Below, piece by piece: positions 37,100 to 64,000 of a DNA stretch of 64,000 nucleotides. Position 1 is the stretch's first letter. Each line of letters starts with the position of its first letter. Source of the stretch: a virus (lineage: Duplodnaviria; Caudoviricetes); IMG/VR virus record IMGVR_UViG_3300014656_003390, positions 1,780-65,779 of that record. One strand, written 5' to 3'. The notes below the pieces were generated by a model. It was given only the letters and a program-made list of their open reading frames with translations. It did not search any database and was not told the DNA's origin. Made by a program: the position numbers and the translations under genes.

Positions 37100-37100
37100 T

Positions 37101-42589: not shown

Positions 42590-43755
42590 CTTGTAATCTC
42601 CACAATTAATTTATTCCAGTCAGCACCAACCTTATCCCAATTATATAATTTATTTACTTTATCTATTCCAATTTTTCCATAATGTTCTCTTAATTCAGGA
42701 TTATCATATAAGAGTGTTAATGCTTTTGCTCCACTTTCATCATCCATAATTGCTCGTTCTACATTCCAACTTCCTGTTAATTCTGTTGCTATTTTTATAG
42801 GAATACCACACACACCATCCTCAACTAATAATTCCTGTGTTGTAGCATAATCAGTTACTATAGGTGTAATGCCACAAGCCATTGCTTCAATAGTAGGAAT
42901 ACCAAATCCTTCTCCAGATGTTGTTAAGAAGAATACATCCATAACATTATAAACTTCATTCATTTGTTTATAATCGAAACCATTAAAGAATGTCATTCCA
43001 GAAAACATAACCCTATTATTTATTTTATATCTGTTAATCAATTGAATTATATCTATTGGTGCTGCTACATCATATGGGTCAGTATGTAAAAATAAAATAG
43101 CATCTGGATGGTCTTTAGCAAATAGAGCAAATGATTTAATTAATCTATCAGGCATCTTTCTTCCTTGATTTCTTTGAACAACACCAACAACAAACTTTCC
43201 CTGAAGTCCCCACTTTGCTTTTATCTTTTCTTTTTCTTCTTTTGGTAATGGAAAATAAATCTTTGTATCTATAGCATGTGGAATATATTTTGTATCAAAT
43301 CCATAACATTCTTTTACTTGCCTTTGTCCATGCCGAGCCATAGCAACAGGACAATTAACTTTCTTTAAAATATTTTCACATTGAAGAGGTAATCCTCCAC
43401 CACCATCGCTTGGGTAATAGAATATAGTTTTTGCAGGTGAAAAATCAATATTCATTAACCATGGCCAACACATAAAAGTATCAAGTAAAATTCCAAACAC
43501 ATCTATATTATATTTCTTTATGTATGGTTGAATTAAATTTTGAGCATATGGAACATGACTTCCACCTAATATAGTAAAATTAAATTTTGTTCCATCTTTA
43601 AGAATTAATCCAGGAGGTATTTCTTGACCAACATAATTATGGCCTAGAAAATAAACATTATGTCCTGCTTCTGCAAGCTTATTACATATATTCCAAGATA
43701 TTGTCGCATAACCAGTACAACAAAGAGGAGAGTCGCTTAACCAAAGAATGTTCAT
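42586..43755 (-). CDS. GT-B (GT4-like) glycosyltransferase
   Basis: IPHAID, RNQGRK, GEGFGIPTIEAMACG. Confidence 0.9.
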   Translation of the reverse strand: MNILWLSDSPLCCTGYATISWNICNKLAEAGHNVYFLGHNYVGQEIPPGLILKDGTKFNFTILGGSHVPYAQNLIQPYIKKYNIDVFGILLDTFMCWPWLMNIDFSPAKTIFYYPSDGGGGLPLQCENILKKVNCPVAMARHGQRQVKECYGFDTKYIPHAIDTKIYFPLPKEEKEKIKAKWGLQGKFVVGVVQRNQGRKMPDRLIKSFALFAKDHPDAILFLHTDPYDVAAPIDIIQLINRYKINNRVMFSGMTFFNGFDYKQMNEVYNVMDVFFLTTSGEGFGIPTIEAMACGITPIVTDYATTQELLVEDGVCGIPIKIATELTGSWNVERAIMDDESGAKALTLLYDNPELREHYGKIGIDKVNKLYNWDKVGADWNKLIVEITR

Positions 43756-44012
43756 CTGAACATCACTGGCTTATTACCACTATACATTTTTGTTTGTCTA
43801 TCAAAATCATTTTGATATAATATATCTTCTTGTGTTAATTTACATCCACTTGTAAAAGTTAAAGACATTCCACTAACACTTAATTTAAAATAACAATCCT
43901 GAAATTGTTCTGCAAAAATTCTTGGAATTGTAATAGCATAACTATCACCAGTTTTATTGTTAATAGTAGTCTTTCTTATTTTATATTGTATCCCAAATCC
44001 TCTATATGCCAA
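43752..44012 (-). CDS. AbrB/SpoVT-like transcription regulator
   Basis: SYAITIP motif; first gene of the operon; GGTGA SD before a TTG start. Confidence 0.55.
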   Translation of the reverse strand: MAYRGFGIQYKIRKTTINNKTGDSYAITIPRIFAEQFQDCYFKLSVSGMSLTFTSGCKLTQEDILYQNDFDRQTKMYSGNKPVMFR

Positions 44013-44058
44013 AAAATCACCTTTTTTAATCTTATATTATATAATTAAATAACTCATG

Positions 44059-44083
44059 TTTAAATATATTATGATTTTCGTTT
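44059..44083 (-). promoter_or_regulatory. Promoter of the glycan operon
   Basis: AAACGAAAATCATAATATATTTAAA on -; 20 bp shared with both arms at 55808-55882. Confidence 0.6.
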
Positions 44084-44110
44084 TAAATATATATATATAT
44101 ATTTAAATTA

Positions 44111-45058
44111 TCACTTATATATATTATATTTACTCATAAATTTACAACCACTAATACAAAACCCATCTCTCTCTATGCTAACACATTTAGGAAATATTAA
44201 ATCATCTCTTTCAAATAAATATTGAAGTTGCTTTTCTTCAACTACACAATGTCTTAACTTCTTTTCAGATAAATGTTGTTTAAGTATTTCAAGGACCTCT
44301 TTTTTTGTATAACCCTTTTCCTTGAAATATAATATGATTAATCCTCGTTCTTTATAGTTCAAATCTTTTCGTTTCAACAATTCTTCTATACACAATGGCA
44401 ACTCTTTTATAACTATACTTTCTGAAGAACTAACATTAGAATTTATAAAAAGAGTTGGTTCTTCTTTTGTTTTGAAATCAAATTTTTTTAAATCAAACAT
44501 ATTATCTCCTCCAAGTAAAGAAGTATGTTTAATAAAATGTTGTTTTAATCCCCAATTCTTACAAAACAAATCTCCTTTATTAAATTCGCTTTCTGTTAAA
44601 GGAATACAAAATCTTTTTCTTTTAACATTAAAAGTATTTTCAATTCTATACAATCGAGCAATATCACCAACGACTGCCATATCGCATTTTAATTTTAATT
44701 CATCAATAAAATATTTTTGAGAGTTATAAAGACAACTCTTTGGATTTATTGGAACATAATCATTACAAAATAAAAATATATGATATCCTCCTCCACTCAT
44801 ATTAACCTTATGCCTCAATTTTTGTTTATTAAGTTCTTGATGAAGTTTGTTTGCTTCTTCCCAACTTCCTTCACCATCAAAGTCCCAAAATATTTTATCG
44901 ATGATAGCACTATTGTAATCTATTTTATTGTTTTCATTTAAATGTTCAAAGTCATATATTGTTCTATAAAGTGCTTTCTTTCCATTGTAAACATTTATAA
45001 ACTTAACCAATTCGCCTTTATCTTTACAAAGTTTACGAGGTAATCCTATTTCAAACAT
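44111..45058 (-). CDS. Archaeo-eukaryotic primase: PriS catalytic domain fused to a PriL-like Cys-rich C-terminal domain
   Basis: FWDFD, SGGGYH, DIARLYRIENTFN; C-terminal LPLCI...RHC...FPKC...FCISGC. Confidence 0.8.
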   Translation of the reverse strand: MFEIGLPRKLCKDKGELVKFINVYNGKKALYRTIYDFEHLNENNKIDYNSAIIDKIFWDFDGEGSWEEANKLHQELNKQKLRHKVNMSGGGYHIFLFCNDYVPINPKSCLYNSQKYFIDELKLKCDMAVVGDIARLYRIENTFNVKRKRFCIPLTESEFNKGDLFCKNWGLKQHFIKHTSLLGGDNMFDLKKFDFKTKEEPTLFINSNVSSSESIVIKELPLCIEELLKRKDLNYKERGLIILYFKEKGYTKKEVLEILKQHLSEKKLRHCVVEEKQLQYLFERDDLIFPKCVSIERDGFCISGCKFMSKYNIYK

Positions 45059-45785
45059 TAATATTATTACCTCCACATTTATCTTTAAATTGGCACCATT
45101 TACACCAAAAACTTGGTTTCATTTTATATTCACCACATTCCATTTCTAATCTAACTTTATTTATAATTTTTATAGCTTTTTGAATATACTTATCACTTAC
45201 TGATTCAAAGAAAAGTTTTCCTTTATCTAAAAAATAAATACCCCAATAACCTACTTCTACTCCATCAATTTTGTTTATTGTTTTATCATTATCGAAAAGT
45301 ATTTTATAAATCGCTAGTTCTAATCTATAATCATCGAGTTGATTTTGATTAAATTGCCCTGTCTTCCAATCAATAATTATTAATTTGTTATCTTTAGGAT
45401 TTAAATAAACTGCATCTATAATTCCTCTTAACATTAATTCAGGGCAACTAACTTTTAATTCTTGAAATACAGGATTAAAATACGCTGGATTAAACTCTCC
45501 AATTTCACTAACACAATCCTTTATTCTTTGATTTTCAAATTCAACAAACTTAACTAAGTCTTCATCTGGTTTCTTTAATTTAATTTCTTGCTTTCCATCG
45601 GCAGTTTTTGTGATATCAATATTCTTATAAAATCTTTCTACCTTTTTATGAATTAAACTTCCTCTATCTTGTGCAGGAGAAGCAATATTTTTAATTTCAT
45701 CTAAGTAAATATACTTCCATTTCATAGGACACTGTAAAAATGTCTTAATTTGACTTTTACTTAACCATCTTTTTTGTTGTTCCAT
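45051..45785 (-). CDS. PD-(D/E)XK RecB/Cas4-like exonuclease
   Basis: LSKSQIKTFLQCP, GIIDAV, IIDWKTG, CKWCQFKDKC. Confidence 0.85.
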   Translation of the reverse strand: MEQQKRWLSKSQIKTFLQCPMKWKYIYLDEIKNIASPAQDRGSLIHKKVERFYKNIDITKTADGKQEIKLKKPDEDLVKFVEFENQRIKDCVSEIGEFNPAYFNPVFQELKVSCPELMLRGIIDAVYLNPKDNKLIIIDWKTGQFNQNQLDDYRLELAIYKILFDNDKTINKIDGVEVGYWGIYFLDKGKLFFESVSDKYIQKAIKIINKVRLEMECGEYKMKPSFWCKWCQFKDKCGGNNINV

Positions 45786-45789
45786 ATTA

Positions 45790-46557
45790 TTATTTAAATA
45801 ATTTAGTATAAAGAGGACAAACATATTCTGTATTTTGTTTTCCTAACAATTTGTTTTCTTTTAGCTGCTGTTCATTCTCTCCTTTCATCATGCAATAATT
45901 TTGAACTTTACAAGGTGGACCAATCCATCTTAATATTCTTGGATCTATCTTGTTTGATATTTCTTCCATCATTAAATTAGCAACTTCTCTAAATTCTCCT
46001 TGTGTTTTTAAACATAATCTTTTGTTAAGCATTCCTATTAATGCTCGTAGTGAACAAGAAAATGTTACTGTAGAATAAATGTTCATTGGTAATAAGCCTC
46101 TTGCATCTTGAGTTGAAACATTTTCTTTCAATGCTTGTCTATATTCTTTTTGAATTTTAAGCATCTTGTTGTGATATCCAATATATTCTTTTGAATTTTT
46201 TTTAAAAGGATTAAAGTAATCCCCATTTTCTGCAAAGTTAGGAAGATTTATGCATCTTAAACTTTGGATTGAATATGAAAAACCAATTCTGTGTCTTGTT
46301 AATTGCTGTTGAAGTGCCCTTGATATATTTTCAAGTTTGAATGTTAATCCTACATATTCAAGAAATGTTGGCATTCCATCATTGAGTAAAACATCATTAA
46401 CATAATCATCAATACTTGAACCAAGCCATTTCTGTGGATCTTTTTTTAATTCTTCTAAAGTATCAGGAACAGGAGAGTGCATAACTCTTCTTGCCCAGCA
46501 CATAGTTTCTATGGGATCTGGTGTATAGTTAATAAGTTTTATATTTGGTTTTTTCAT
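45790..46557 (-). CDS. thyX: Flavin-dependent thymidylate synthase family protein
   Basis: RHRIGFSYSIQSLR, DARGLLP, NKRLC. Confidence 0.85.
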   Translation of the reverse strand: MKKPNIKLINYTPDPIETMCWARRVMHSPVPDTLEELKKDPQKWLGSSIDDYVNDVLLNDGMPTFLEYVGLTFKLENISRALQQQLTRHRIGFSYSIQSLRCINLPNFAENGDYFNPFKKNSKEYIGYHNKMLKIQKEYRQALKENVSTQDARGLLPMNIYSTVTFSCSLRALIGMLNKRLCLKTQGEFREVANLMMEEISNKIDPRILRWIGPPCKVQNYCMMKGENEQQLKENKLLGKQNTEYVCPLYTKLFK

Positions 46558-49500
46558 TTTATTATCTCTATGTCCATGAATGGTTCTTTATTCATTCTAT
46601 ATTTGACTTTTATTCCTGGGTATAATTTAACTAAAGATCTAAAACAAAGTCCTTCTATACCATTACTTAATTTTATTCTATAATATGATTTTTCGTTTTT
46701 ACTAACTGCTGGTGTCGACGATATTATTATAGTTTCTCCACTATTTAAGTTCTTCTTAAATTCATCAACATCATGCATTTTATCTGGAATTTGAAGTAAT
46801 TCACCATACATTTTTTGTCCTACTTTGTTGAATGTTCCATAAACAACAACTGGTTTTTTATCAAAGGAATAAATTAATTCTTTATATTTGTCATATGTAT
46901 GAGGTGATATTTGAATGGCAAGATTTCCTGTTCCATCATTTATATTAAGATATATCATATGAGGTTCAAAATTATGGATGTGCTTTTTATCCATTGGACG
47001 AATAAGTTTGTCTTTGTTTATGATTGCTGTAACAACTCCTCTAACATATCCTTGCTTTCCTCCATTGCTTTCTCCGAGATTTTCAATATTTATAAAATCA
47101 AAATCTCCAAAATTAAGTGATTTTAATATATTAATTTTTGGTCTTAGAGATGTATTCTCCATTATTAATTCTGCATATTCAATATCTGAATAATCAGCAA
47201 TTTCTTTTGTATAACAATTTCTTATTTCTTTTATGTCTCTTTCATAACATGCTCTTTTGTTAATTCCAAAATCTCTAAAACAATCAGCAATTACAAGTGA
47301 TTTAATTGTTGATGCTCCAATGTTACATCTTTTTGTAAAGTCTTCGAAATTTACAAATGGTTGTAGTTTAATTATTTTTTCTGCTGTTTTTTTACCAATT
47401 CCATTTATTGAATTAAAACCAGAATATATTGCTTTTTGTTTTGCAGAATAACTAAATTCAGAATAATTAATATTTGGATATTCAACTTTGACACCATTGT
47501 CTAAAGCATCATTTAAGTAATTTGAGATTTGTTCACTTTTGTTTTCAAATTTTAAAATTGCCTTATAAAATTCAAAAGGATAATATGTTTTAAGCCATGC
47601 ACACCAATAACTTATGATTGAATATTCAACAGCGTGTGCCTTATTGAATGAATATGAACCAAATGTTGATACAACATCATAAAGTTTTTCTGCATCTTTT
47701 TTTGGCATATTATGAAGTTTATTTGCATTTCTTACAAACTCTGCTCTCATTTCTTCAAATGCTTTTTTACCTTTGCTTTTAGTAATTACTTTTCTTGCCA
47801 TTTCTGCAGTTGCCCAAGACATTCCTCCAATTCTATTCATAATCTGCATTATTTGTTCTTGATATAAAATAATTCCTTTTGTATCTTTTGTTAATTCTTT
47901 AAGTAATGGATGTTCATAATTTGTTTCTGCTTTTCCTAAATGACGATTAACATATAACATTGTTTGTCCACTATGCAAAGCACCTGGTCTAAATAATGTT
48001 GTTGCATCATAAAGAGTTGAAAAATTATCTGTTTTTAATTCTTTAATGAGTTTGCTTAATCCTACAGTTTCAAATTGAAATATGCCAAGACTTTTACCAT
48101 TTGAAAAAACCTTTTTATATACTTCAGGATCTTCAAAATCACTTGGAAGTTTTTGTGGTACCATTTTCATACATTCCGAAATTACAGTTAGTGTTTTCAG
48201 TCCAAGAATGTCAAATTTTGTTAAACCAGCATCCTCAACTAATTGCTTTTCCCATTCAGTTACAATCTCTCCACCAATTTTATTTAAAGGTAAATATTCT
48301 GAAATTGGTTTGTCTGTTAATACCAAAGCAGCAGCATGAACACCTTTGTGTCTTATATGTCCTTCAAGTTTAATAGCTACATCAACAGCACTTGGATATT
48401 TTAATTTAAATGCTTTTGCTTCTTCAAATTCAGCAAAAGTATCAAGCAGTCCAAATGATGCTCTTGCATCTCCACCACTTCTTATTAAAACAAGATTGCA
48501 AATTTTTTCTATCTCACTTATTGATATGGAAAATATTCTTCCAACATCTCTTAATATTCCTTTTGGATGAAATCTTGAATATGTTGCAACTTTAGCAGAA
48601 TTATAAATTCCATATTTATTAATAAGATATTGAACAACTTCTTGTCTTCTATTGTCTTGATAGTCCATATCAACATCAGGTGCATCTCTTCTTATCTCAG
48701 AAATAAATCTATCAAATAATAAATTAAATTTAATTGGATCGCATTCTGTTATATTTAAAGCATAAGCTGCTAAACTTGCACCAACACTTCCTCTTCCTGG
48801 ACCAACCATTATTCCTTGCTGTTTTGCCCATCGTATCATGTCTTCTACAATTAGAAAATAATTTTCATATCCTTTTTCAAAAAATCTACTCATCTCTAAG
48901 TCAAGTTTTTCTTTTGCTACTCCTTCATATTTATATGGAGTATATTTTTCTAAACCAGTAACACACATTTCTTTAAGTTTAATTCGTGCTTCTTCTTTTG
49001 AAGAGAATAATCTTGGTAATGTTTCTTGATTGTTTGCTGTTTTAATTTCAAAATTTATTTTGCTCAAAACATTATAAGTATTATTTTTCAACTTTTCAAT
49101 AATTAATCCAAACCAATTATTCTCTTTATTTGTTAATATTCTTTGATTTATGTCTTCATCAGTCATTAAATAAAAACAATTGTCACCAAATCCTGCTTCA
49201 CCATATTTTTTTCTTAATCCAATTGCTTTAACTGCTTCATGATATTTTTTGTCTGATTGATAAGAATAGTGTGCATCTGTTGTTATAACAGATTTTATAT
49301 TATATTTTTGGTATAAAGCATAAGATTTTTTCATTATATTTTGATTGTTAATGCAAGTATGAAGTTGAAGCTCTCCATAAAAATCATCTTTCCAAGTTTC
49401 TTTATATCTTGCAATATACTTTTCAGCAACATCTTCTTTGTTCTCTTTTAATAAATTTGATATTGCACTATCAATACAGCCAGACAATATGATTAATCCT

Positions 49501-50699
49501 TCTGAATATTTAAATAAATTTTCAATTTTAACAATTGGTTTGTAATAAAAATCTTCACGAACAGCAATTTCATGTAGTTTCAATAAATTTTTATAACCAA
49601 TTTCATTTTTAACAAGCACTGTTTGGTGCATTCTTTTTTCACTTTCTGGAATTTGGATATATAGTTCACATCCAATAATTGGTTTAATTCCTCTTTCAAG
49701 TAATGCTTTTTGAAATTCCCAAACACCAGCTAGTGTTCCATGATCTGTTATAGCACATGCTTTAAATCCTTTTTTATATAAACTTTCAGCAATATATTTA
49801 CATGTTCCAAATCCATCACCAATTGAAAACTCTGAATGAACATGAAGAGGAACATAATTTTGCTGGACAATTTGTTCTTCTTGTTTCTCTTTTTCATATA
49901 TTTTAATCAAATCAGAAATTGGTTTATATTGCTCTGCAAAAATTCTTCTTATCTCTGAACTTTCTTTTTCTGAGTCATTTCCAATCATCTGAACAATTCT
50001 TGTATCAGCAACAATTTCTTTTGTTATGTAACCAACATACCAATACTCACCAGCCTTCATCTTACAACAAATGTATAAATCAATTTCAGGATGTTTTTTA
50101 TAATAACTTTCATATATCATCATGTCTTCATCAGACATTATATCTCTTGTATAAATCTTTACTTTTTTATTTCCCAAAAAACATTCATCTTTTTGATTTA
50201 TATCCTTAAAATAAACATCTGTTTGTTTACAAAAATTATGAAGACCAGCCAAAATTCCTGATATCATTTCTTTGTGTCCAAGATTTTCTGCTATCTGTTT
50301 GTTAATTATAAATTTTTCTTTTAGAGCTCTTGTTTCTTTAATTTTAAAAAATTGTAAATTCTGTAAATTGCTATCAACAACCATATAATAAAATTTGTTA
50401 TTTCTATAGATATCTCTTTTTGGAGTTGATAATAATTGCTCTTTTGAACACCATCCTGGTATTCTTGTTCTTGATGCTCCTGTTTTTACAAGAAGAAAAT
50501 TATCATATTTGTTAATAATACTTTCTGAAATTATTATGTCATCTGAATGATCGTAAGGATGATAATCAATAAACCATTTTTGATTATTAAATATAAATTC
50601 TTCTTTGCTTATTTTCTTGGTATTTATTTTGGTAATAAAATTATCAATAACTTGTTCTGTTGATTTTTCAGTCTCTTCAATTTGTTTTATAAATTCCAT
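46554..50699 (-). CDS. dnaE: Family C DNA polymerase (DnaE alpha) with ~280-aa N-terminal extension
   Basis: PHP LHVHSEFS.DG, PGRGSVGASL, PDVDMD, KFDILGL, FNKAHA, C-terminal OB fold. Confidence 0.95.
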   Translation of the reverse strand: MEFIKQIEETEKSTEQVIDNFITKINTKKISKEEFIFNNQKWFIDYHPYDHSDDIIISESIINKYDNFLLVKTGASRTRIPGWCSKEQLLSTPKRDIYRNNKFYYMVVDSNLQNLQFFKIKETRALKEKFIINKQIAENLGHKEMISGILAGLHNFCKQTDVYFKDINQKDECFLGNKKVKIYTRDIMSDEDMMIYESYYKKHPEIDLYICCKMKAGEYWYVGYITKEIVADTRIVQMIGNDSEKESSEIRRIFAEQYKPISDLIKIYEKEKQEEQIVQQNYVPLHVHSEFSIGDGFGTCKYIAESLYKKGFKACAITDHGTLAGVWEFQKALLERGIKPIIGCELYIQIPESEKRMHQTVLVKNEIGYKNLLKLHEIAVREDFYYKPIVKIENLFKYSEGLIILSGCIDSAISNLLKENKEDVAEKYIARYKETWKDDFYGELQLHTCINNQNIMKKSYALYQKYNIKSVITTDAHYSYQSDKKYHEAVKAIGLRKKYGEAGFGDNCFYLMTDEDINQRILTNKENNWFGLIIEKLKNNTYNVLSKINFEIKTANNQETLPRLFSSKEEARIKLKEMCVTGLEKYTPYKYEGVAKEKLDLEMSRFFEKGYENYFLIVEDMIRWAKQQGIMVGPGRGSVGASLAAYALNITECDPIKFNLLFDRFISEIRRDAPDVDMDYQDNRRQEVVQYLINKYGIYNSAKVATYSRFHPKGILRDVGRIFSISISEIEKICNLVLIRSGGDARASFGLLDTFAEFEEAKAFKLKYPSAVDVAIKLEGHIRHKGVHAAALVLTDKPISEYLPLNKIGGEIVTEWEKQLVEDAGLTKFDILGLKTLTVISECMKMVPQKLPSDFEDPEVYKKVFSNGKSLGIFQFETVGLSKLIKELKTDNFSTLYDATTLFRPGALHSGQTMLYVNRHLGKAETNYEHPLLKELTKDTKGIILYQEQIMQIMNRIGGMSWATAEMARKVITKSKGKKAFEEMRAEFVRNANKLHNMPKKDAEKLYDVVSTFGSYSFNKAHAVEYSIISYWCAWLKTYYPFEFYKAILKFENKSEQISNYLNDALDNGVKVEYPNINYSEFSYSAKQKAIYSGFNSINGIGKKTAEKIIKLQPFVNFEDFTKRCNIGASTIKSLVIADCFRDFGINKRACYERDIKEIRNCYTKEIADYSDIEYAELIMENTSLRPKINILKSLNFGDFDFINIENLGESNGGKQGYVRGVVTAIINKDKLIRPMDKKHIHNFEPHMIYLNINDGTGNLAIQISPHTYDKYKELIYSFDKKPVVVYGTFNKVGQKMYGELLQIPDKMHDVDEFKKNLNSGETIIISSTPAVSKNEKSYYRIKLSNGIEGLCFRSLVKLYPGIKVKYRMNKEPFMDIEIIK

Positions 50700-50944
50700 T
50701 ATTCAACTTCAGGAGTATTCTTTCTCCATCCTCCTTCTCCTGCTTTCCATGTCTTATATCTCTCACCATGTAGTTGAACCATAGATATTTTTCGTAGGAT
50801 CTCAAGCAAATCTTCTTCAGAATTGCACCATATTCCTTCGTCTTTGTAATTTACTGCCCAAGCAATTATGTTCTCTCCTTTCTTTTTTCCTTTGATTAAA
50901 GAAGTATGAACTCTTGCTCCAGCACATTCACTTATTTTTTTCAT
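50699..50944 (-). CDS. Hypothetical protein
   Basis: Preceded by TGAAAGGAGG. Confidence 0.6.
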   Translation of the reverse strand: MKKISECAGARVHTSLIKGKKKGENIIAWAVNYKDEGIWCNSEEDLLEILRKISMVQLHGERYKTWKAGEGGWRKNTPEVE

Positions 50945-51233
50945 TTTTATTTTTTCCTCCTTTCAATATAATTAATTCCATTATAGCATATATAGCAAGA
51001 TCCATCCAAGTATCAATTAAAGTTTCGTCTGGAAGATTTTGTTTATTCTCTCCTGAATAATATGTCTGAAGTCGTGCAATTTTTCTTCTTACTGAAAGCC
51101 ATCTTTCAAGTTCAGAGTATTCTCCTTCAAAATAATCATTGCCATAATGCTTATTTTTTGCTGAAAATTGACTTAATAATTCATTGCAGACTACAGCAAA
51201 TTCTTCATTCTTTTCCATAAATTTATCAGTCAT
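50928..51233 (-). CDS. DUF1599/nucleotide-modification-associated all-alpha domain
   Basis: KNKHYG...RKIARL...DTWMDLAIYAIM. Confidence 0.7.
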   Translation of the reverse strand: MTDKFMEKNEEFAVVCNELLSQFSAKNKHYGNDYFEGEYSELERWLSVRRKIARLQTYYSGENKQNLPDETLIDTWMDLAIYAIMELIILKGGKNKNEKNK

Positions 51234-52186
51234 ATTTTTATATCCTTTAATGTTTTAATTCTTACAATATTTTTGTGTTGAATATTTTGATTATAGGTCT
51301 TATCAATTAAGTAGACTTTATAACCTTTATTGGCGATTTTCAAAGCAATCTCAGCACAATCCTCTATCATGAAATTCATATTTGGAAATTTGTTTATAAT
51401 CTTCTCTTCTTTATTTTCATCAAAGATTATTGCATCACATAGAATATTCTTCTTTTTTAACCATTCAATTGTATCAGCAAATACTCTTGAATATTCTTTA
51501 TATGGACGAGCAGATAAAATGATTATTTTATATCCTTTCTCTTTAAGATTTTTTGTAAATTCATCAGGATTATTTATTGTTTTTATAAATCTTTTTTCTC
51601 CACTTTCTCTATACTCTCTTTTTAGCTGTTTTGCTCTTTCTTCACCAAGAACATCTGAAACATTTTTAAAAATATTGTATGTACCATCATCTTTTATTCT
51701 TTTTCCTGTTTTTTTAAATATGAAGTTGTAATAACTTTTTGGATAATCAGCAATGCATCCATCAAGGTCTAGACCAATAATTTTTTTGTCTTTAAGTAAA
51801 TTTAATTGCTTTTCTTGTTTATATCTTTGTTCAACAACTTCAGACTTTCTATTAAATTCAGAAATAAATTCTTTAGGAGACATATTCCAAAATTGAGCAA
51901 TACTTAACCAATATTTAAAAATGTCTATTATTTCATCTTTTAATCTGCTTTCTTTAATTGGATTATATTTATTGTATACTTTTTCTCTGTGCATCTTCCA
52001 ATTAATTTCATTGAGTAATTCTGTTGCTTCTGTTATTAAGTGCAGAATAAATTCTTTTGTTAATGCTTCTTTCTCTTCAATTGTATTTGCTTTATTCTTA
52101 AGAAGTTCATTAAAGTCTTTTTGCCTTTTCCAAATCTTATTTAATTCTTCCATTTTATTGTTTTTATTCCTCCATTTGTTATCCAA
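51230..52186 (-). CDS. Dimeric dUTPase/MazG-like pyrophosphatase fused to HAD 5'(3')-nucleotidase
   Basis: EATELL...WK...DEIID; GLDLDGCIAD; FMIED. Confidence 0.85.
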   Translation of the reverse strand: MDNKWRNKNNKMEELNKIWKRQKDFNELLKNKANTIEEKEALTKEFILHLITEATELLNEINWKMHREKVYNKYNPIKESRLKDEIIDIFKYWLSIAQFWNMSPKEFISEFNRKSEVVEQRYKQEKQLNLLKDKKIIGLDLDGCIADYPKSYYNFIFKKTGKRIKDDGTYNIFKNVSDVLGEERAKQLKREYRESGEKRFIKTINNPDEFTKNLKEKGYKIIILSARPYKEYSRVFADTIEWLKKKNILCDAIIFDENKEEKIINKFPNMNFMIEDCAEIALKIANKGYKVYLIDKTYNQNIQHKNIVRIKTLKDIKI

Positions 52187-52557
52187 TATTTTAAATCTTC
52201 TTTATTATAGTCTTCAAGATATATAATTTTTTTAATTCCTGCTTGAATACATAATTTATAACATATTTCACAAGGCAATAAAGTTGAATATAAAGTTGCT
52301 CCTTCTGCTTCTTTTCCTGCTTGAAGAAGAGCATTCATTTCAGCATGAAGAACTCTTATGCAATGATTGTCTTTCATAAGACAGCCAACATCAGTACAAT
52401 GTTCCATTCCTTTAGGTGCTCCATTGTAGCCAGAAGCAATTATTCTATTATTCTTTGTTATTATTGCACCAACTTGTTTTCTTGGACAAGATGCCTTTTT
52501 GCTTATAAGTTTTACAATTTCAATAAAATATTCATCCCAGCTTATTCTTTTTTGCAT
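52141..52557 (-). CDS. dCMP deaminase
   Basis: SGYNG, HAEMNA, PCEIC. Confidence 0.9.
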   Translation of the reverse strand: MQKRISWDEYFIEIVKLISKKASCPRKQVGAIITKNNRIIASGYNGAPKGMEHCTDVGCLMKDNHCIRVLHAEMNALLQAGKEAEGATLYSTLLPCEICYKLCIQAGIKKIIYLEDYNKEDLKYWITNGGIKTIKWKN

Positions 52558-53434
52558 ATTCAATTGCCTCTTTTATTACTTTTTCAGTTTTATATGCTCT
52601 ATTCCATGTACCATATCTTCCTGAAAATATAATATTTTTTATGCTAGGTATTTTTTTCAAAGTTATTATTTGAACATCTTTTAAAATTTGAGAATTAATA
52701 TAATTCATACCAAATTCTTTTCTACACTCTTTTTCTGTATGCTCTCCAAACCATTCTACAACAAGTCCTTTTTCTGTTTTTGTAATTCTATGGAATTTTT
52801 CATTTAAGCAATAAACAAAATTAAATTCTTTAATATCAAAAAAATTGTTCTGCAATAAAATATAAGTAATATCTTCTGATGCTAATTTTTCTTTTTTGAT
52901 TTCAGGAGAAGTTATTTTATAAAATGTGTTTAATGGTATGGTGTTTATAAGTTTGCTATAACAGAATGTATTGCTCTGATTTTTTAAAAAGAAACACTTA
53001 TATTTTAAATTAATTTTTGCTATCTCTCCTACGATTATTCTATCAAATAATTTTATTTTTAAAGCATGAATTATCTTGTCAAAATCTATATTGAAAACTT
53101 GCATCTCTTTCTTGTCTGAATTCATTAATGTTTTATCAGAAATATTTTTATTTGTTCCTCTACTTTTCTTAAAGTACTTTTTTTTAAAAGAATTATCTGG
53201 ATCAATAAATTGATTATCATAATATCCAACTTTAATTATTTTTTTATCTGTTATAATATTTAAGTCTTTTAATAATTTCTGTGTGTCTTTTGTAACTTCA
53301 AGATATCTAGGACCAAGCTGAAAAGAATAATTGTATTGTCCTCCAATTTCTGTGCTAATAATTTTATATTCTTTGTTATAAAATGCCCAAATAAGTCCTG
53401 CAATTCCACCACCTAAGATATAATTATTTTCCAT
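52532..53434 (-). CDS. FAD-dependent oxidoreductase (Glf/amine-oxidase-like fold)
   Basis: ILGGGIAGL dinucleotide motif; C-terminal GRYGTW. Confidence 0.75.
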   Translation of the reverse strand: MENNYILGGGIAGLIWAFYNKEYKIISTEIGGQYNYSFQLGPRYLEVTKDTQKLLKDLNIITDKKIIKVGYYDNQFIDPDNSFKKKYFKKSRGTNKNISDKTLMNSDKKEMQVFNIDFDKIIHALKIKLFDRIIVGEIAKINLKYKCFFLKNQSNTFCYSKLINTIPLNTFYKITSPEIKKEKLASEDITYILLQNNFFDIKEFNFVYCLNEKFHRITKTEKGLVVEWFGEHTEKECRKEFGMNYINSQILKDVQIITLKKIPSIKNIIFSGRYGTWNRAYKTEKVIKEAIEYAKKNKLG

Positions 53435-53435
53435 T

Positions 53436-53606
53436 TTATTGCTCTTTTATTTGTTTTTCTGTCTGGATTTTTCTTTCATTTAATTTTAGTAGTTTGTTTT
53501 GTACTACTGGACTATCTTTAAAGTTATATTTTAAATCCCATTCACAATTTTTAATTTCACTTTGTATTCTTTTTAATTTTAACTGCATTTCCTCTTTTAT
53601 TTCCAT
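53436..53606 (-). CDS. Small coiled-coil protein (56 aa)
   Basis: MEIKEEMQLKL...KQIKEQ fills the gap. Confidence 0.5.
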   Translation of the reverse strand: MEIKEEMQLKLKRIQSEIKNCEWDLKYNFKDSPVVQNKLLKLNERKIQTEKQIKEQ

Positions 53607-53609
53607 AAA

Positions 53610-54398
53610 TCATTTTAACATCTCCTTTAATTTGTCAATTGTAGGGCTTTCTATAATCTTTCCAATTAAATCTCCATTTTGACGACACTTCTCTATTTTA
53701 GCTTGGAATGTTATTCCTCTTGCTCCAAGGAATTTGATTTCATGATAAAGAACAATATCAACAAAAAATGGAATTTTCTTTTGGACTTCTGGTTTATAAC
53801 GACCAGTTGGTTGTCCTGCTCCAGCATAAATTTCTCCTTCTCGTGCTGTAAAAATGATATTACAATTTTTATTTATAAGTTTTAAAACATTTTTTCGCAT
53901 AAGTGAATTTGGAACACCCCAATCAAATTGTTGTTTGAAACGCTCTTCAATCGGAATTTTGAATACTTTTGTTTTAGCATAAGCTTGACACCAACTCCAG
54001 ATATCTGTCATAGAGTCAACAATTATTGTTCCTATCTGTTCATCTGGAAGTGAAGTTAATTGTCTAACTGCTTCTTGGAAATTTTCAAAATTTCTTACTT
54101 CATCTTTTTCATCTGTATCTTCTCCTGACATATCGCATATATTAATAACATTAGCTTCAGGAAACTTATTAGCAAGTGGTCCTGTTCCATTTTCAGTATC
54201 AATAACATAAATTGGTTCAGTTGAAGTAAGTGCAAAGTGAGTTTTGCCTGTACTAAAATTTCCATAACTGAGAATTTTTATTCCTCTACTTTGTTTTACA
54301 TCTTTTAATTTTTTAAATTCCATTTTTGCTTCTTGCTTTGCCTCTTGTTTTGCTTTTATTTCTTCTGGTTTAATATTTGCTTGTGTATTCCAACTCAT
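53610..54398 (-). CDS. AAA_24/Sak4-like ATPase (probable recombinase)
   Basis: YGNFSTGKT, VIDTE, IVDS, TARE. Confidence 0.75.
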   Translation of the reverse strand: MSWNTQANIKPEEIKAKQEAKQEAKMEFKKLKDVKQSRGIKILSYGNFSTGKTHFALTSTEPIYVIDTENGTGPLANKFPEANVINICDMSGEDTDEKDEVRNFENFQEAVRQLTSLPDEQIGTIIVDSMTDIWSWCQAYAKTKVFKIPIEERFKQQFDWGVPNSLMRKNVLKLINKNCNIIFTAREGEIYAGAGQPTGRYKPEVQKKIPFFVDIVLYHEIKFLGARGITFQAKIEKCRQNGDLIGKIIESPTIDKLKEMLK

Positions 54399-54411
54399 TT
54401 TCTTTTTCTCC

Positions 54412-54477
54412 TTTATTTTGTTTTTCGGCTCATGCCTCATCAGCAACCAGACTTTTACTGGTTGGAAACAAAATAAA
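54412..54477 (-). ncRNA. Type III hammerhead ribozyme
   Basis: 12-bp stem III, UUC cleavage triplet, 7-bp stem I, CUGAUGA, 3-bp stem II, GAAA; all core nucleotides present. Confidence 0.9.
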
Positions 54478-54509
54478 ATAACAATTTTATTAATCTTCTT
54501 TAATCTTCT

Positions 54510-54650
54510 TTAATCTTCTTGGTGTTCTAAACAACATTCGCTCTGTTTACTCTTAACTTCATCTTTTTCAATTGTATCTACACTTTCCAATATTTCATCA
54601 ACCTTAATTTCTATCTTTTCGAAATCTTGTATTGTTGTTTGTTTTTCCAT
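54510..54650 (-). CDS. Small acidic protein (46 aa)
   Basis: MEKQTTIQDF...EHQED; followed by AGAAGATTAA x3. Confidence 0.45.
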   Translation of the reverse strand: MEKQTTIQDFEKIEIKVDEILESVDTIEKDEVKSKQSECCLEHQED

Positions 54651-54651
54651 T

Positions 54652-55722
54652 TTATATATTTTCTTCTGTTATCTCTTCAACTTCAGGAAGTTCAATTTTG
54701 TATTTGGGAATTGCATAAATACCAAAAGTATTTATTGTTACATTACTAAGTTCATCAGTTAAATTTCCCATATCATCTCTCTTTTTTCCTTGAGATGTTC
54801 TTCCTACTACAAGCACTTTACTACCTTCTGCAAAATCTATATTTATTCTTGAAGGTATCCAACAAGTAATACCATTGTTTGCTTCTATATCTTCTAGAGC
54901 AAGTGTTTCGTCTTCTATATTCATAATTCTGCTACCAATACTTGTTGGTTCAAGTCTTAAACTACTAACACTGCCTTCAGTTATGACAAATCTATTGAAG
55001 TTATCTTTAGTTAGTAGATGATACTCTGCTAAATCTTTTATCTCAACAAAAACATTTGTTATTTTTAATAAAGTTTCAAATTCAGGTATTTTTAGTTCAT
55101 TATCAACATTAAATGTTGTAAATGACGATGGATTTAACACATAACTTGATGTATTTTCTTTTGGTGTTTTATCAATAGCCATAAATCTTACTGGCTGAAA
55201 TATTGGTAAGTTTTCATCCTTTGCTTTATCACCTGATAAGTTCATTGTAAAAACTTTTGGTATATCATTAACATTTTTTGAATTAATAGCAATACCTATA
55301 ATATTTCTTAAATAGTTATGCTCTGGTAATGGTTTACCATATGATGAATTTCTTCTTCCCCCAGCCCATTCTTTTCTTGTATCAAGAGGTATTCCTTGTT
55401 CATCAACAATTCCTTGAAGGATGGCTTGTTGTGGATCATTTTTGTATTTTTCTAAAGCATCACGTTTTTGTTTTGCTACTATATCAACACAATCACCCAT
55501 TCCAATTATAAATCCTTCAAACCCTGTTGCTGGACTTCTTAATTGTTTCTTATAAAGAAGTGCTAATCTACTAAGTGCTCTTTGGTTCTTATCTTCTTCT
55601 GATAAATCTTTGTGAATATCATTTTCTTCAGCTAGAAGAATTTGATAATCTTTTTCAATATCTTTTTGAGGCATGGAAAGTTTATCACTCCATTCTTTTA
55701 TAAGCTCGTTAAATTGTTTCAT
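54652..55722 (-). CDS. Probable single-stranded DNA-binding protein (RPA-like OB folds)
   Basis: Next to the recombinase; helical N-terminus, beta-rich OB-like C-domain (ITCWIP...KVLVVGR), acidic tail. Confidence 0.45.
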   Translation of the reverse strand: MKQFNELIKEWSDKLSMPQKDIEKDYQILLAEENDIHKDLSEEDKNQRALSRLALLYKKQLRSPATGFEGFIIGMGDCVDIVAKQKRDALEKYKNDPQQAILQGIVDEQGIPLDTRKEWAGGRRNSSYGKPLPEHNYLRNIIGIAINSKNVNDIPKVFTMNLSGDKAKDENLPIFQPVRFMAIDKTPKENTSSYVLNPSSFTTFNVDNELKIPEFETLLKITNVFVEIKDLAEYHLLTKDNFNRFVITEGSVSSLRLEPTSIGSRIMNIEDETLALEDIEANNGITCWIPSRINIDFAEGSKVLVVGRTSQGKKRDDMGNLTDELSNVTINTFGIYAIPKYKIELPEVEEITEENI

Positions 55723-55807
55723 TTTTTAACCTCCTTTCAACTATATTTTGGAACATAATAAAATGCATCATATCTTTTTTTTCAACCATAGAAGATATAA
55801 AAATCGG

Positions 55808-55882
55808 ATATTTAAATATATTATGATTTTAAATTTAATGGTTTTTATTATCTACAACCAAAATCATAATATATTTAAATAT
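55808..55882. promoter_or_regulatory. Divergent promoter pair forming a perfect 23-bp inverted repeat
   Basis: ATATTTAAATATATTATGATTTT (55808-55830) / AAAATCATAATATATTTAAATAT (55860-55882) at the strand switch. Confidence 0.75.
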
Positions 55883-55967
55883 TATTATATTTTTAACATT
55901 ATTATGTTATCAAAAGAGTGGATAGGTGGTTTTATTTCTGGAGAAGGATGGTTTAATTAGATAAATT

Positions 55968-56264
55968 ATGGCATACAAAATAAAACACAAATGCGATTTA
56001 TGTTCTAATAAAAGCAATAATACAGTTGTATATAAAGGAAAAGAACTTTGTAAAAGTTGTTATCGTAGAACAATGATAAAGTGTTTAAGTTTAAATAGTG
56101 TTCATAAAAGAAAAACAATTGAACAAGCATTAAATAAAATTTATGAAATTCGTGGATATGGAATAAAGAGAAATGGACGAGGATTTATAAGAGCTGTTTG
56201 TAGCTTTCCTGCTATATTAATAGGTCATAAAGTTAAATTAGTTTTGATTGATAATATTAAATAA
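55968..56264 (+). CDS. Zn-finger plus DUF2080-like small DNA-binding domain
   Basis: CDLC...CKSC; C-terminal FPAILIGHKVKLVLI. Confidence 0.5.
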   Translation: MAYKIKHKCDLCSNKSNNTVVYKGKELCKSCYRRTMIKCLSLNSVHKRKTIEQALNKIYEIRGYGIKRNGRGFIRAVCSFPAILIGHKVKLVLIDNIK

Positions 56265-56302
56265 GTTAAATAAGTTAAATAAGTTAAATAAGTTAAATAA
56301 GT
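56258..56302. repeat. 9-bp tandem repeat TAAATAAGT x5
   Basis: Five exact units. Confidence 0.95.
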
Positions 56303-56316
56303 TAAAACATATTAAA

Positions 56317-56646
56317 ATGGGATATATAAAATGGAGATGTACAAAATGTGGAGACATTATTATAAGTAATACTAATAGGCGACATCAAGCAGATTTTTGT
56401 AAATGTGGGCAAGCAATGTGTGATTCTGAAAACGATTATGTTAGGTGGGGTGGTAATGTAGAATATTTAAATAAATTTGATTATAATTTCTTTAATGAAT
56501 TAGTGTATTGTATGGATAAACAAGGATTTATAGCAATAGGAATTAAATGGAATGATGGACATTTTTGGATAACATTACAAGAAAGTATGTTTATAAGAAA
56601 ATTAGAAGACGAGATTTGTAAAAAGTTGAAAGGAGGAGATATATAA
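56317..56646 (+). CDS. Zn-ribbon protein
   Basis: RCTKCGDIIIS...FCKCG. Confidence 0.7.
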   Translation: MGYIKWRCTKCGDIIISNTNRRHQADFCKCGQAMCDSENDYVRWGGNVEYLNKFDYNFFNELVYCMDKQGFIAIGIKWNDGHFWITLQESMFIRKLEDEICKKLKGGDI

Positions 56647-56649
56647 AAA

Positions 56650-56832
56650 TTGGATATGGGAATTGAATTAGGATTTATAGGATTATTAACAATTATTTTA
56701 GTTTTTTTAAAGGCATTTAATATTATTGATTGGTCTTGGATTTGGGTATTGTCGCCATTATGGATTAGTGCATTAATTGGAATGTTAATTGTTATATTGC
56801 TTATTATAATTGGTTATTGTTGGTTGTTATAG
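56650..56832 (+). CDS. Small two-TM membrane protein
   Basis: IDWSWIWVLSPLWI. Confidence 0.7.
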   Translation: MDMGIELGFIGLLTIILVFLKAFNIIDWSWIWVLSPLWISALIGMLIVILLIIIGYCWLL

Positions 56833-56888
56833 TTGAAGTAATTGTTAATAAAAAGTAAAAAGGTTGATAGTAGACTTAATTAATGTTA

Positions 56889-56916
56889 GGTTAAAGGTTA
56901 AAGGTTAAAGGTTAAA
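56889..56916. repeat. 7-bp tandem repeat GGTTAAA x4
   Basis: Four exact units before the helicase ATG. Confidence 0.9.
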
Positions 56917-56927
56917 ATATTAAAAAA

Positions 56928-58250
56928 ATGATAAAAACTAATTTTGATGAATGGTATAAAACATTTGAAAAAGCATGGAATGTTAGAATGATTGAAAATG
57001 AACACTTGAAAACCATTTGTTTTTTAGAAATGTTGAGTTGTATTAATAGGGTGAGATATATTTATGGGGGGCAATATAAGACAACAAATATTAGTAGTTT
57101 TAAGGTTCAACAATCAGGAACAGGAAAAGGGGTAGCAGATAAAATTGTTGGAGATTGTTTAAGACATATGGGTTATAATGTTTGTAAGATTAATAATTTT
57201 ACTGAAGCTGCAATTATTGGTAGTTTAACAATAGATATGGTAGGAAAAGCTCATATAATTAAAGGAGCATTAGGTGAATATGATTTTATATGGATTGATG
57301 AAGCAAGAAATTTAATAGTTGGTAATAATTGGACACAAGGTTTATTAGAAGTAATTAATGGATATTTAGATGATGGAATGATTTTTAAGAGATTAGCAAA
57401 AGGAGAGATTAAGTATTGGAGTAATTGTAATTTTGGAACAGGAACTTTCTTTTTTGATAAATTAAAACCAACAATATTAGCAACTGGTATATTTCAAAGA
57501 ACACTTTTTAGTTATAAGGTTTTTGATAAAGAAGATATTTTAAGGATTAGTGGAAAATTTAATAATTTAGCCGAAAAGAGTTATATTGAAGATTTATTGC
57601 CAATATTAAATAATTTAAAAAAGTTAAAAGAACAACTAAGTTTTGAAAAATATAACATAAGTAAGAATAAGGACCATCCAAATTATGTCATTAGAATGAA
57701 GATAGAAGCAAGTAAATATTTAGGTGAAAAAATTGATAAATATTTTAATGAAGAAATTTTTGAAAAAGTTAAGGACAAAAGATTGAATGATATATTAACA
57801 AGTTTTTTGATAAGAAGTAAAGAAATGGGTCATAGAATTATGTGTATTTACGCAGTTTGGAACAATAAGGATGTTATAGATGAAGAATGTGCTGAAGTAG
57901 TGTATCCTATAATTAAAGACCAATTAAGTTTTGTTCTTGAATTTGTAAGTGATATTTTTGAAGGAACTGGATTTGATAGTGATGATTTAGTTAAGGAAGA
58001 GTTAAAGAAGAAGAAGGTTAAGCAAACAGAATTAGCTTTGTTAAAGTTGATTAAAGACCATCCTGGATTGACGAAGTTGGAGATTAGAGAGTTGATTAAG
58101 AAGAATAAAGAGTTATTTAGTTTAGGAGAAAGTCAAATTTTTAATAAGATTTTGCCATATCTTATAGAAAGTTCAGGAAAGGTTAGATTAGAACAAGGAG
58201 ATACGGCAGCAGAAAAGAAGATTTTTTTAGTTGAAATTAAAACAAAATAA
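56928..58250 (+). CDS. AAA+ ATPase, probable MCM-like replicative helicase with C-terminal wHTH
   Basis: QSGTGKG Walker A, IIKGALG..FIWIDE Walker B, GIFQR Arg finger, C-terminal HPGLTKLEI. Confidence 0.55.
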   Translation: MIKTNFDEWYKTFEKAWNVRMIENEHLKTICFLEMLSCINRVRYIYGGQYKTTNISSFKVQQSGTGKGVADKIVGDCLRHMGYNVCKINNFTEAAIIGSLTIDMVGKAHIIKGALGEYDFIWIDEARNLIVGNNWTQGLLEVINGYLDDGMIFKRLAKGEIKYWSNCNFGTGTFFFDKLKPTILATGIFQRTLFSYKVFDKEDILRISGKFNNLAEKSYIEDLLPILNNLKKLKEQLSFEKYNISKNKDHPNYVIRMKIEASKYLGEKIDKYFNEEIFEKVKDKRLNDILTSFLIRSKEMGHRIMCIYAVWNNKDVIDEECAEVVYPIIKDQLSFVLEFVSDIFEGTGFDSDDLVKEELKKKKVKQTELALLKLIKDHPGLTKLEIRELIKKNKELFSLGESQIFNKILPYLIESSGKVRLEQGDTAAEKKIFLVEIKTK

Positions 58251-58670
58251 TATATATTTAGATATATGTTAAATATATATTCTAAAATATTTAACCCCAA
58301 AAAAACTTTTAAATATTTTAAATATATTGGGTGGTTTTAGGTGATTTTGGTATATAGTTGATATATAAGTATCTCAATATATTTAAATTATTTAATATAT
58401 TTAATAAATATATTACTATACTAATTAAATATATTGGGAAAAAACACTAAAAAACCCTATAAGGGTATAATAAAAAGTAAATATTTTAAATATATTAAAT
58501 ATTTCAGGATTTGTGCCTCTTTTATTGTGTTTTGAGGACTAAAATATATGTTTAGATATATAGTAGATAAATATTCTAAATCCACTTCAAAATAACCCTT
58601 TTTAAGCATTTATATTCTGTAGTATATAGTTAATATATACTAATACATTTAAATACTCTTTTAGTTTCAA
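58251..58670. other. AT-rich non-coding region, candidate replication origin
   Basis: No ORF; two 30-bp near-palindromic copies at 58257 and 58551. Confidence 0.4.
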
Positions 58671-58671
58671 T

Positions 58672-58832
58672 ATATTAGGTAGACAGAATGCAATCAATCA
58701 AACAGACTTTGTGTCTTGAAACTTGCTAATGGTCTACCTAATATTCGCCGATTGCAAAAATTTATTTCCATCTTTTTTAACCAAAAGATTGGGAGATGGT
58801 GGTTCGCACTCTCACATAATAAAAAGCGACCA
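58672..58832 (+). ncRNA. Candidate structured RNA (pseudoknot plus two hairpins)
   Basis: 13-bp stem 58672-84/58732-44 crossed by 7-bp stem 58689-95/58750-56; TTTAAATA at 58648-55. Confidence 0.5.
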
Positions 58833-58854
58833 AATCATAATCAAAAAAACAAAC

Positions 58855-59899: not shown

Positions 59900-60113
59900 G
59901 AACGCAACAATTGGTAGAGTTCAGAACGGAGCTATGGCTGCTGTACCTTTCACTGATGGTGATTCAGTAAGTAGTTTGCTTCTAAAGGCAAAGATTAACT
60001 TAGTTCAAGGCGAAGAAGTTAATGATAGTTATGGTAATCCTGTAGCATTAACAGCACTTGCTTCGGAAATGACCTACTACATTGTTCGTAATATGAAAAA
60101 TGGAAAAAACTGA
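59886..60113 (+). CDS. Ubiquitin-like beta-grasp protein
   Basis: 75 aa; beta-beta-alpha pattern (ATIGRV..AAVPFTDGDSVSSLLLKA); last strand YYIV then MKNG-KN; upstream of E2 and JAB genes. Confidence 0.65.
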   Translation: MSIYKNATIGRVQNGAMAAVPFTDGDSVSSLLLKAKINLVQGEEVNDSYGNPVALTALASEMTYYIVRNMKNGKN

Positions 60114-60175
60114 AATCCGAAAGGATTTTGGCTTTGAAGATTTTTTTATTTTTCTTCTTTTTTCTTTTTCATAAA
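60113..60175 (+). terminator. Hairpin AAATCC-GAAA-GGATTT plus T-rich tract
   Basis: 6-bp stem with GNRA loop at 60113-60128, then poly-T/C. Confidence 0.55.
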
Positions 60176-60193
60176 AAGACATAAACAAAAACA

Positions 60194-62468: not shown

Positions 62469-62469
62469 A

Positions 62470-63906: not shown

Positions 63907-64000
63907 AAGTTGAATACGAAACACAAGAATATATCCAAGGTTGTATTAAAACCTGTGAAGGAAAGAAACATTTACAGCAAGTAGCATTTAGCACATTTCA

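Follow-up and report, generated by a model that had tools for sequence, protein, structure and literature searches.

A GATC-bearing replication module in an otherwise GATC-free tailed virus genome: probable exchange of a module allele

The DNA analysed here, a stretch of 64,000 nt which we call the window and whose coordinates are used throughout, is part of a single 65,779 bp contig from a virus of the Caudoviricetes (Duplodnaviria; IMG/VR record IMGVR_UViG_3300014656_003390), referred to below as G000. The tetranucleotide GATC occurs only 12 times in the window and all 12 copies fall between positions 45942 and 55437, inside a module of replication and nucleotide-metabolism genes (45790..55722) which includes a DnaE-type DNA polymerase gene. 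This segment is called the module, cassette or tract and the remainder of the genome the backbone. In the reading that we favour, with a rough probability of 0.78, the replication-module allele of a GATC-tolerant relative very recently replaced the resident allele on a backbone that had been purged of GATC.

An exact search places the sites at 45942, 46437, 46515, 46636, 48128, 48737, 49742, 50549, 50798, 50999, 53200 and 55434, and reproduces both the count and all the coordinates given in an earlier reading made without database searches (the sequence-only reading). No GATC occurs elsewhere in the window or in the 1779 bp of the contig that lie beyond it. Expected numbers were obtained from three null models: dinucleotide-preserving shuffles, a maximal-order Markov model and within-gene synonymous codon shuffles, which keep the protein sequences and the codon usage of each gene. 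Dinucleotide-preserving shuffles of the window contain 184 +/- 13 sites. Under the Markov model, observed over expected numbers are 0/111 in 1-45900, 12/19 in 45901-55500 and 0/15 in 55501-64000; the uneven distribution which had been noticed by eye is therefore real. For the whole backbone this model predicts 127 sites where there are 0 (z = -11.3), making GATC the most depleted of all 4-6-mers, and a binomial test of the split of the sites by length gives p = 2.9e-10. Synonymous shuffles give 0/50.7 for the structural genes, 0/39.6 for a cluster of sugar-related genes, 0/1.8 for the three genes at 43.75-45.83 kb and 0/7.3 for the right arm (0 against approximately 100 for genes outside the tract), compared to 12/17.4 for the cassette, in which neither the ThyX gene (3/3.6) nor the DnaE gene (5/6.6) is depleted. 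The site-bearing part represents about 15% of the genome and about 85% is site-free, while the GC content of the two compartments is nearly identical (27.6% vs 28.9%).

The purge can be followed at the level of individual codons (a hyphen marks the codon boundary). Aspartate in the backbone is encoded by GAT in 91% of cases when no C follows (896 GAT, 92 GAC) but exclusively by GAC when the next codon begins with C (38 GAC, 0 GAT), in agreement with the remark in the sequence-only reading that GAC is used there despite the AT bias. The two other frames behave in the same way: where an xGA codon for Arg or Gly precedes Ser, xGA-TCN is never used and xGA-AGY is used 69 times, and xxG-ATC does not occur while ATC follows a non-G base 52 times. 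The backbone purge therefore operates through synonymous, context-dependent codon choice in all three frames. In the module, aspartate before a C-starting codon is GAT 10 times and GAC once (at 51769, inside the dUTPase_2/NT5C fusion gene), which is the context-free preference, and these GAT codons account for 10 of the 12 GATC sites. The module is free of any GATC avoidance. That the backbone was shaped by GATC avoidance of the restriction type, as had been proposed, is upheld by this synonymous purge, which is common to most relatives of the virus; the selective agent was presumably a restriction system.

A second word, GAWTC (GAATC/GATTC), shows a different distribution. With synonymous shuffles, the module has 0/12.2 (observed over expected), compared to 15/27.8 for the structural genes and 5/7.7 for the right arm (20/35 for these plus-strand modules together) and 3/18.5 for the sugar cluster. 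Across models the expectation is 12-17 for the module, 28-34 for the structural genes and 8-11 for the right arm, and GAWTC is absent throughout 45202-56422. The module thus tolerates GATC and yet is the part of the genome most fully purged of GAWTC, a contrast in keeping with a separate history of encounters with restriction systems for the module.

The compartments, the two flanking genes and the module genes are as follows. Open reading frame is abbreviated ORF.

1-25.8 kb, plus strand: GATC-free structural genes (terminase, portal/Mu-F fusion, capsid, tape measure, baseplate hub)
25772-43755, minus strand: GATC-free sugar/glycosyltransferase cluster of ~18 kb (glycosyltransferases, NDP-sugar enzymes, methyltransferase)
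44111-45076, minus strand: primase-large-subunit-like (PriL-like) gene; backbone flank, GATC-free, no informative Asp-C context
45051-45824, minus strand: PD-(D/E)XK exonuclease; backbone flank, GATC-free, no informative Asp-C context
45790..55722, minus strand: GATC-bearing replication and nucleotide-metabolism module, 9 called genes and two small ORFs
45790..46557, minus strand: ThyX, flavin-dependent thymidylate synthase (Pfam Thy1, E = 2.3e-34); 3 GATC
46554..50699, minus strand: DnaE-type (family C) DNA polymerase, 1381 aa (Pfam PHP, DNA_pol3_alpha, finger and HHH_6); 5 GATC
50699..50944, minus strand: 81-aa ORF with no function assigned, 85% identical to its homolog in relative L031; 1 GATC
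50928..51233, minus strand: DUF1599-like protein (nucleotide-modification-associated domain 1), a weak match (Pfam E = 0.0043, under the curated cut-off); 1 GATC
51230..52186, minus strand: fusion of dUTPase_2 (MazG-like) and NT5C (5'-deoxynucleotidase)
52141..52563, minus strand: dCMP deaminase (Pfam dCMP_cyt_deam_1, E = 1e-24)
52532..53434, minus strand: 300-aa protein (u300) with an amine-oxidase-like flavoprotein fold by Atlas structure match; 1 GATC
53610..54446, minus strand: Sak4-like RecA-family single-stranded DNA-annealing ATPase (AAA_24)
54652..55722, minus strand: 356-aa protein (u356), which leads the leftward operon; 1 GATC, at 55434
55968..64000, plus strand: GATC-free right arm (small ORFs mostly without assigned function, DUF7695, Prok-JAB)

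Several of these assignments deserve comment. The 270-aa N-terminal extension of DnaE has no Pfam match. The DUF1599-like protein also matches phrog_1485 (E = 7.5e-12). The 300-aa protein has no Pfam match and its Atlas structure aligns with a TM score of 0.8-0.86 to the Amino_oxidase and NAD_binding_8 families. Protein u356, which has no match in Pfam or PHROG and had been called a single-stranded DNA-binding protein (SSB) in the sequence-only reading, is probably an RPA-like OB-fold protein of this type; its Atlas features score 0.89-0.92 against archaeal RPA/SSB clusters, which provides a lead only. An acidic ORF of 46 aa (isoelectric point 4.3) is located between u356 and Sak4.

Relatives of G000 place the module in context. 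Most IMG/VR viruses with a related terminase avoid GATC, the exceptions being L010, L011 and L014, and observed over expected numbers for relatives include 1/170 (G001), 2/132 (G002), 1/54 (L125) and 0/30 (L012); L125/L126 is the closest backbone relative. GATC-tolerant lineages occur in the same gene pool (L115, 29/40; L014, 20/38; and also L010 and L011). G001 (61 kb) and G002 (49 kb) are syntenic with G000 over the structural genes, the entire sugar cluster and the primase-like, exonuclease, Sak4 and u356 genes, and their exonuclease-Sak4 interval is occupied by family-B polymerase (PolB) cassettes, that of G001 (L021:1-11000) with a PCNA-like gene and an island of DNA methylases and that of G002 (L027:2279-10175) with a UDG gene, a ThyX-like gene and a Tmk-like gene. 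Others (L031, L030 and L113/L114) have the same backbone and carry, in the same slot and in the same gene order, a homologous DnaE cassette whose DnaE is 59-70% identical. The replication slot is therefore a swap site which is polymorphic, PolB against DnaE, within one virus family. Since these relatives hold a homologous cassette in the same slot, the DnaE module adds no new gene content to this backbone, and it is the allele in G000 that is unusual: the DnaE cassettes of relatives have almost no GATC (observed/expected).

L031 DnaE cassette: 0/43.6
L113 DnaE cassette: 0/27.6
L114 DnaE cassette: 1/33.3
L029 DnaE cassette: 0/24.8
L117 DnaE cassette: 0/29.8

The difference extends to conserved residues. 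At Asp319-His, Asp654-Pro and Asp50-His of DnaE, G000 has GAT-C and the avoiding relatives GAC-C, and at Asp96-Pro of u356 G000 has GAT-C where G001 and G002 have GAC-CCN; the GATC-tolerant L115 and L030 share the GAT-C of G000 at some of these positions. In the DnaE tree G000 is sister to the GATC-free L113 (support 100/99) and GATC status is scattered over the tree, which indicates that this status changes faster than DnaE diverges. A scan of IMG/VR with the DnaE alignment retrieved distant DnaE phages only (33-38% identity), most of them non-avoiding (median observed/expected 0.88). We also considered a family-wide tendency of replication modules to keep GATC; this was rejected because only L032 and possibly L030 fit it and the other residual sites lie outside the module.

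The borders of the tract were bracketed with a map of Asp-C markers. On the left, the breakpoint lies within 43113..45942, between the last avoidance marker (GAC-CAT at 43113, in GT389) and the first GAT-C (45942-45945, in the ThyX gene). It is most likely to be the exonuclease-ThyX junction at ~45.8 kb, judging from codon usage and gene order: codon usage is of the backbone type in the primase-like and exonuclease genes and of the cassette type from ThyX on, and synteny with G001/G002 stops at the exonuclease gene. On the right, the bracket is 55437..57672, from the last GAT-C (55434-55437, in the u356 gene) to the next GAC-C (57672). It includes a divergent intergenic/promoter region (55723-55967), and the sign of the GC skew flips near 55.8 kb. 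When codons constrained by GATC are masked, module-type codon usage is found in each of the nine module genes and is lacking in 61 of the 67 backbone genes (p = 3e-6), and the tract is the strongest codon-usage outlier among 10 kb blocks.

In the favoured reading, long-standing selection of the restriction-avoidance type would have removed GATC from the backbone by way of synonymous codons, while the module allele, from ThyX to the RPA-like SSB gene (~45.8-55.8 kb), would have evolved in a related lineage that was not selected against GATC but was strongly selected against GAWTC. Recombination at or near the module borders would then have exchanged the resident module for the incoming allele, so recently that neither compartment has started to change. 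From these patterns we infer when the swap took place, in which direction it went and what kind of donor was involved. The swap would be very recent on the scale of synonymous changes because the module is unpurged and the backbone has not regained sites: reversion to GAT is found in 0/38 of the backbone GAC-C contexts, which, as a rough inference, limits C-to-T changes to at most ~0.08 per site of this kind since selection was relaxed, if it was. The same number disfavours a uniform relaxation of selection, since sites would then return everywhere. The sequence-only reading had stated that the DnaE module arrived recently as a block. Its separate history, as opposed to an assembly artefact, is retained, whereas the module content is not new and the arrival is better described as that of a different allele (ThyX to u356); the word "recently" finds indirect backing in the unpurged module and the lack of any regained backbone site, the closest DnaE match being 70% identical.

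Some observations weigh against such a swap. Pairwise identities are star-like in both the backbone and the cassette and, with few taxa in which both compartments are available, incongruence between gene trees is not demonstrated. Among 5.8 billion protein clusters the closest DnaE homolog is 65-70% identical and is itself GATC-free, and no close donor is among the sampled sequences; matches of at least 90% come solely from the virus population to which G000 itself belongs, and no GenBank phage matched window 44-58 kb in a megablast search. The similarity of Sak4 and u356 to their G001/G002 counterparts equals that of the backbone genes, and for this reason the right-hand extent of the import depends on a single GATC site together with the codon signal and the gap in GAWTC. 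Finally, GATC-free relatives show a codon contrast between replication and structural genes in the same direction. The codon-usage shift was accordingly dropped as evidence for import or recency; it is a family-wide property of the module and was kept only to place the borders.

The sequence-only reading had named a chimeric assembly as what would undo its case. Exact-sequence look-ups found the exonuclease, ThyX and 356-aa protein in other assemblies, and six contigs were compared with the window. They derive from three pipelines (MEGAHIT k141 at ENA, Logan and JGI) and represent two ENA records, one SRA run and one JGI sample.

L118, ENA ERZ27247128: window 40189-50103, 100% match
L119, Logan SRR6514274: window 43300-48695, 100% match
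L120, ENA ERZ27247121: window 44311-46532, 100% match
L121, JGI 3300014613: window 44311-46064, 100% match
L123, ENA ERZ27247128: window 50158-58688, 0 mismatches, one repeat-copy indel
L124, Logan SRR6514274: window 50968-56286, 100% match

The left junction is spanned by L118-L121 and the right by L123 and L124, with zero base mismatches in all six, and both junctions thus recur in ENA, Logan and JGI contigs. The sole difference across the 8.5 kb of L123 is in a 9 bp tandem repeat, CTTATTTAA, at ~56250-56300, which has 5 copies in the window and 3 in L123. A further ENA contig (L122, 3911-4048) links the end of the G000 contig to its start through 138 bp; the genome therefore closes, at ~65.9 kb, and has a circular or circularly permuted form. 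Each contig end has small paralogous genes with the motif GCAGARAATTCAAGGGGTGGGG in front of them.

It is against this background that the other explanations have to be judged. An assembler could have fused two co-occurring related viruses, only one of them GATC-free, and such an artefact, being infinitely recent, would match the total absence of amelioration. In addition, there are breaks in the ENA contigs at ~40.19, 50.1 and 58.7 kb and L118 opens with an alternative 38 nt, so variants may co-exist in the sample. Since six contigs match across both junctions without a base mismatch, and since the genes at the junctions have the same order and the same overlaps of reading frames as in relatives, we regard a chimera as scarcely credible. 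Equally implausible is the proposal that GATC is retained in the module for methylation-dependent regulation or as part of a replication origin. Three sites (46437, 46515 and 46636) do fall within 200 bp where the ThyX and DnaE genes meet, but the 12 sites against 17-19 expected are at or slightly below neutral frequency with no enrichment, all except two are simply the preferred Asp codon before a C-starting codon, they are not conserved in relatives, and no Dam-type methylase is encoded. That the module was never imported and is instead a stretch shielded during infection, for instance by entering the cell after expression of anti-restriction functions, is very unlikely, although restriction sensitivity that depends on position has been documented in Autographiviridae (PMC12455610) and the five residual GATC of L032 are all in its replication module. 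In the known cases it is a small leading region that is site-free and the rest is tolerant, whereas here 85% is site-free. The G000 assembly closes on itself, residual sites lie outside the module in G002, L114 and G003, and the homologous modules of L031, L113/L114, L029 and L117 are GATC-free (leaving aside the single site counted in L114), from which it follows that in relatives this module is not beyond the reach of selection.

The sequence-only reading had further suggested that the module possibly brought DNA protection with it. In this version the imported module would also encode a function blocking cleavage at GATC, the entire genome would no longer need to avoid the word and the GATC-free backbone would be a fossil; candidates would be a small anti-restriction protein, or a base modification in which ThyX, the DUF1599-like protein, the flavoprotein, the dCMP deaminase and the NT5C fusion take part. 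The presence of nucleotide-metabolism genes, the weak DUF1599 match, the amine-oxidase-like flavoprotein and the acidic 46-aa ORF are in keeping with it, as is the occurrence of a virus with 12 sites in several samples, which shows that this virus is viable. No DNA methylase of the N6/N4, D12 (Dam-type) or C5 type is encoded anywhere in the G000 genome, and GATC-free relatives hold homologs of every annotated cassette gene, L031 alone having those of u300, dCMP deaminase, the NT5C fusion, the DUF1599-like protein, the 81-aa ORF, DnaE and ThyX, so that gene content alone does not lift the selection. Modification-type genes are moreover extra in relatives and absent from G000 (Methyltransf_21 in L031; TAGT in L113/L114). 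Protection is unsupported by positive evidence and we judge this explanation unlikely. More doubtful still is its stronger form, in which an unrecognised activity of the module would render GATC uncuttable and a single swap would have ended a genome-wide constraint, possibly in a virus of DPANN archaea using a bacterial-type DnaE.

Exchange of the module allele, as favoured here, combines processes with well-known counterparts. Phage avoidance of restriction sites, as short palindromes, was reportedly described by Sharp in 1986 and by Rocha, Danchin and Viari in 2001. GATC is reported to be completely absent from staphylococcal phage K. Restriction-site avoidance in phage genomes is also addressed in Rusinov et al. 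2018 (PMC6286503), and GATC is under-represented in Streptococcus thermophilus phages (PMC12322248). The G000 backbone resembles these cases in losing a 4-bp palindrome through synonymous choices and in sharing the avoidance with relatives; it is unlike them in that avoidance is all-or-none and is broken by one sharply bounded module in which the word has its neutral frequency. In the modular mosaicism of tailed phages (Botstein's modular theory), modules are exchanged at conserved borders and replication modules are replaced by non-orthologous ones. The G000 family likewise has a slot between conserved genes that is filled by PolB or DnaE cassettes, with borders that are gene or operon borders. 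The swap proposed for G000 differs from typical mosaicism since it would involve homologous DnaE-type modules and is exposed by avoidance fingerprints rather than by gene content or an identified donor.

The pattern also recalls the amelioration of horizontally acquired DNA, a concept of Lawrence and Ochman cited in PMC10359461. New DNA keeps the signature of its donor until the pressures of the recipient erase it, though in G000 the signature is the presence or absence of GATC and GAWTC and not base composition. In T5 the first-step-transfer region differs in site content from the rest of the genome. T7-like phages show a position-dependent restriction sensitivity that concerns the leading region (PMC12455610). 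As in T7 and T5, site content varies between regions of one phage genome, but the geometry is reversed: a small first-entering region is site-free there, while in G000 a small internal module carries the sites and relatives purge that module. G000 is a very clear case of established processes, target avoidance and modular exchange, and reveals no new mechanism.

Restriction-target fingerprints can thus expose a swap that would go unnoticed from base composition and gene content, and avoidance profiles could be used as a record, module by module, of the defence systems met. The unpurged module and the 38 unreverted backbone contexts serve as a relative clock. The favoured reading predicts that past hosts of the backbone had a GATC-directed system and those of the donor a GAWTC/GANTC-directed one, and that the present host is without GATC restriction or methylates the virus.

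Several other words are depleted in the window, including GAATTC (4 vs ~23 expected), CTAG, ACGT and CpG generally. A contrast between the compartments in CTAG, suggested by the Markov model, was dropped because depletion relative to base composition is equal in both.

The DnaE genes of the family vary in organisation. That of G003 (L024:2631-7752) carries an insert of ~1 kb, DnaE is split into parts of 924 aa and 502 aa in L113/L114 (L113:984-5263), and many homologs have intein domains or an N-terminal UDG domain. At its start, L118 has 38 nt (L118:1-38) which begin with ATG and diverge from G000 at window ~50103, corresponding to DnaE residue ~199; this may reflect a co-existing variant with an altered or absent DnaE N-terminal domain. 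DUF1599 is present in G003, L116 and other relatives. In the closest relatives of the cassette a TAGT (PF20691) gene is located directly upstream of DnaE (L113:253-987; L114:8166-8900), which suggests that DNA bases may be glycosylated in the L113/L114 lineage.

No relatives of the terminase were found in GTDB representative genomes, no paper mentions the sample accessions, and a link to a DPANN-archaeal host is weakly hinted at by sequence similarities. Among named cellular sequences, those nearest to the GDP-mannose dehydratase (35682-36722), homologs at 62-65% identity, come from metagenome-assembled genomes of DPANN archaea (Pacearchaeota, Nanoarchaeota), and archaeal-type features include the PriL-like primase (44111-45076), the archaeal-RPA-like u356 (54652-55722) and, in relatives, PCNA and PolB. 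Contrary to these hints, the polymerase of G000 is a bacterial-type DnaE.

The sugar cluster, which contains GT1 and GT2 glycosyltransferases, the dehydratase just mentioned (a GDP-mannose 4,6-dehydratase), epimerases and a methyltransferase, is conserved in G001, G002, L031, L113 and L125. Also present in relatives are radical-SAM enzymes, a cytidylyltransferase, a GHMP kinase, a TPP enzyme and a UDP-glucose dehydrogenase. Candidate roles of the cluster are remodelling of the host surface or glycosylation of DNA or of the virion. Finally, the right arm encodes a Prok-JAB domain protein (61464-62468), and genes for a ThiF-like protein and an ERCC4 nuclease occur close to it, just beyond the window (on the ENA contig L122); the pairing of JAB and ThiF recalls ubiquitin-like conjugation modules.

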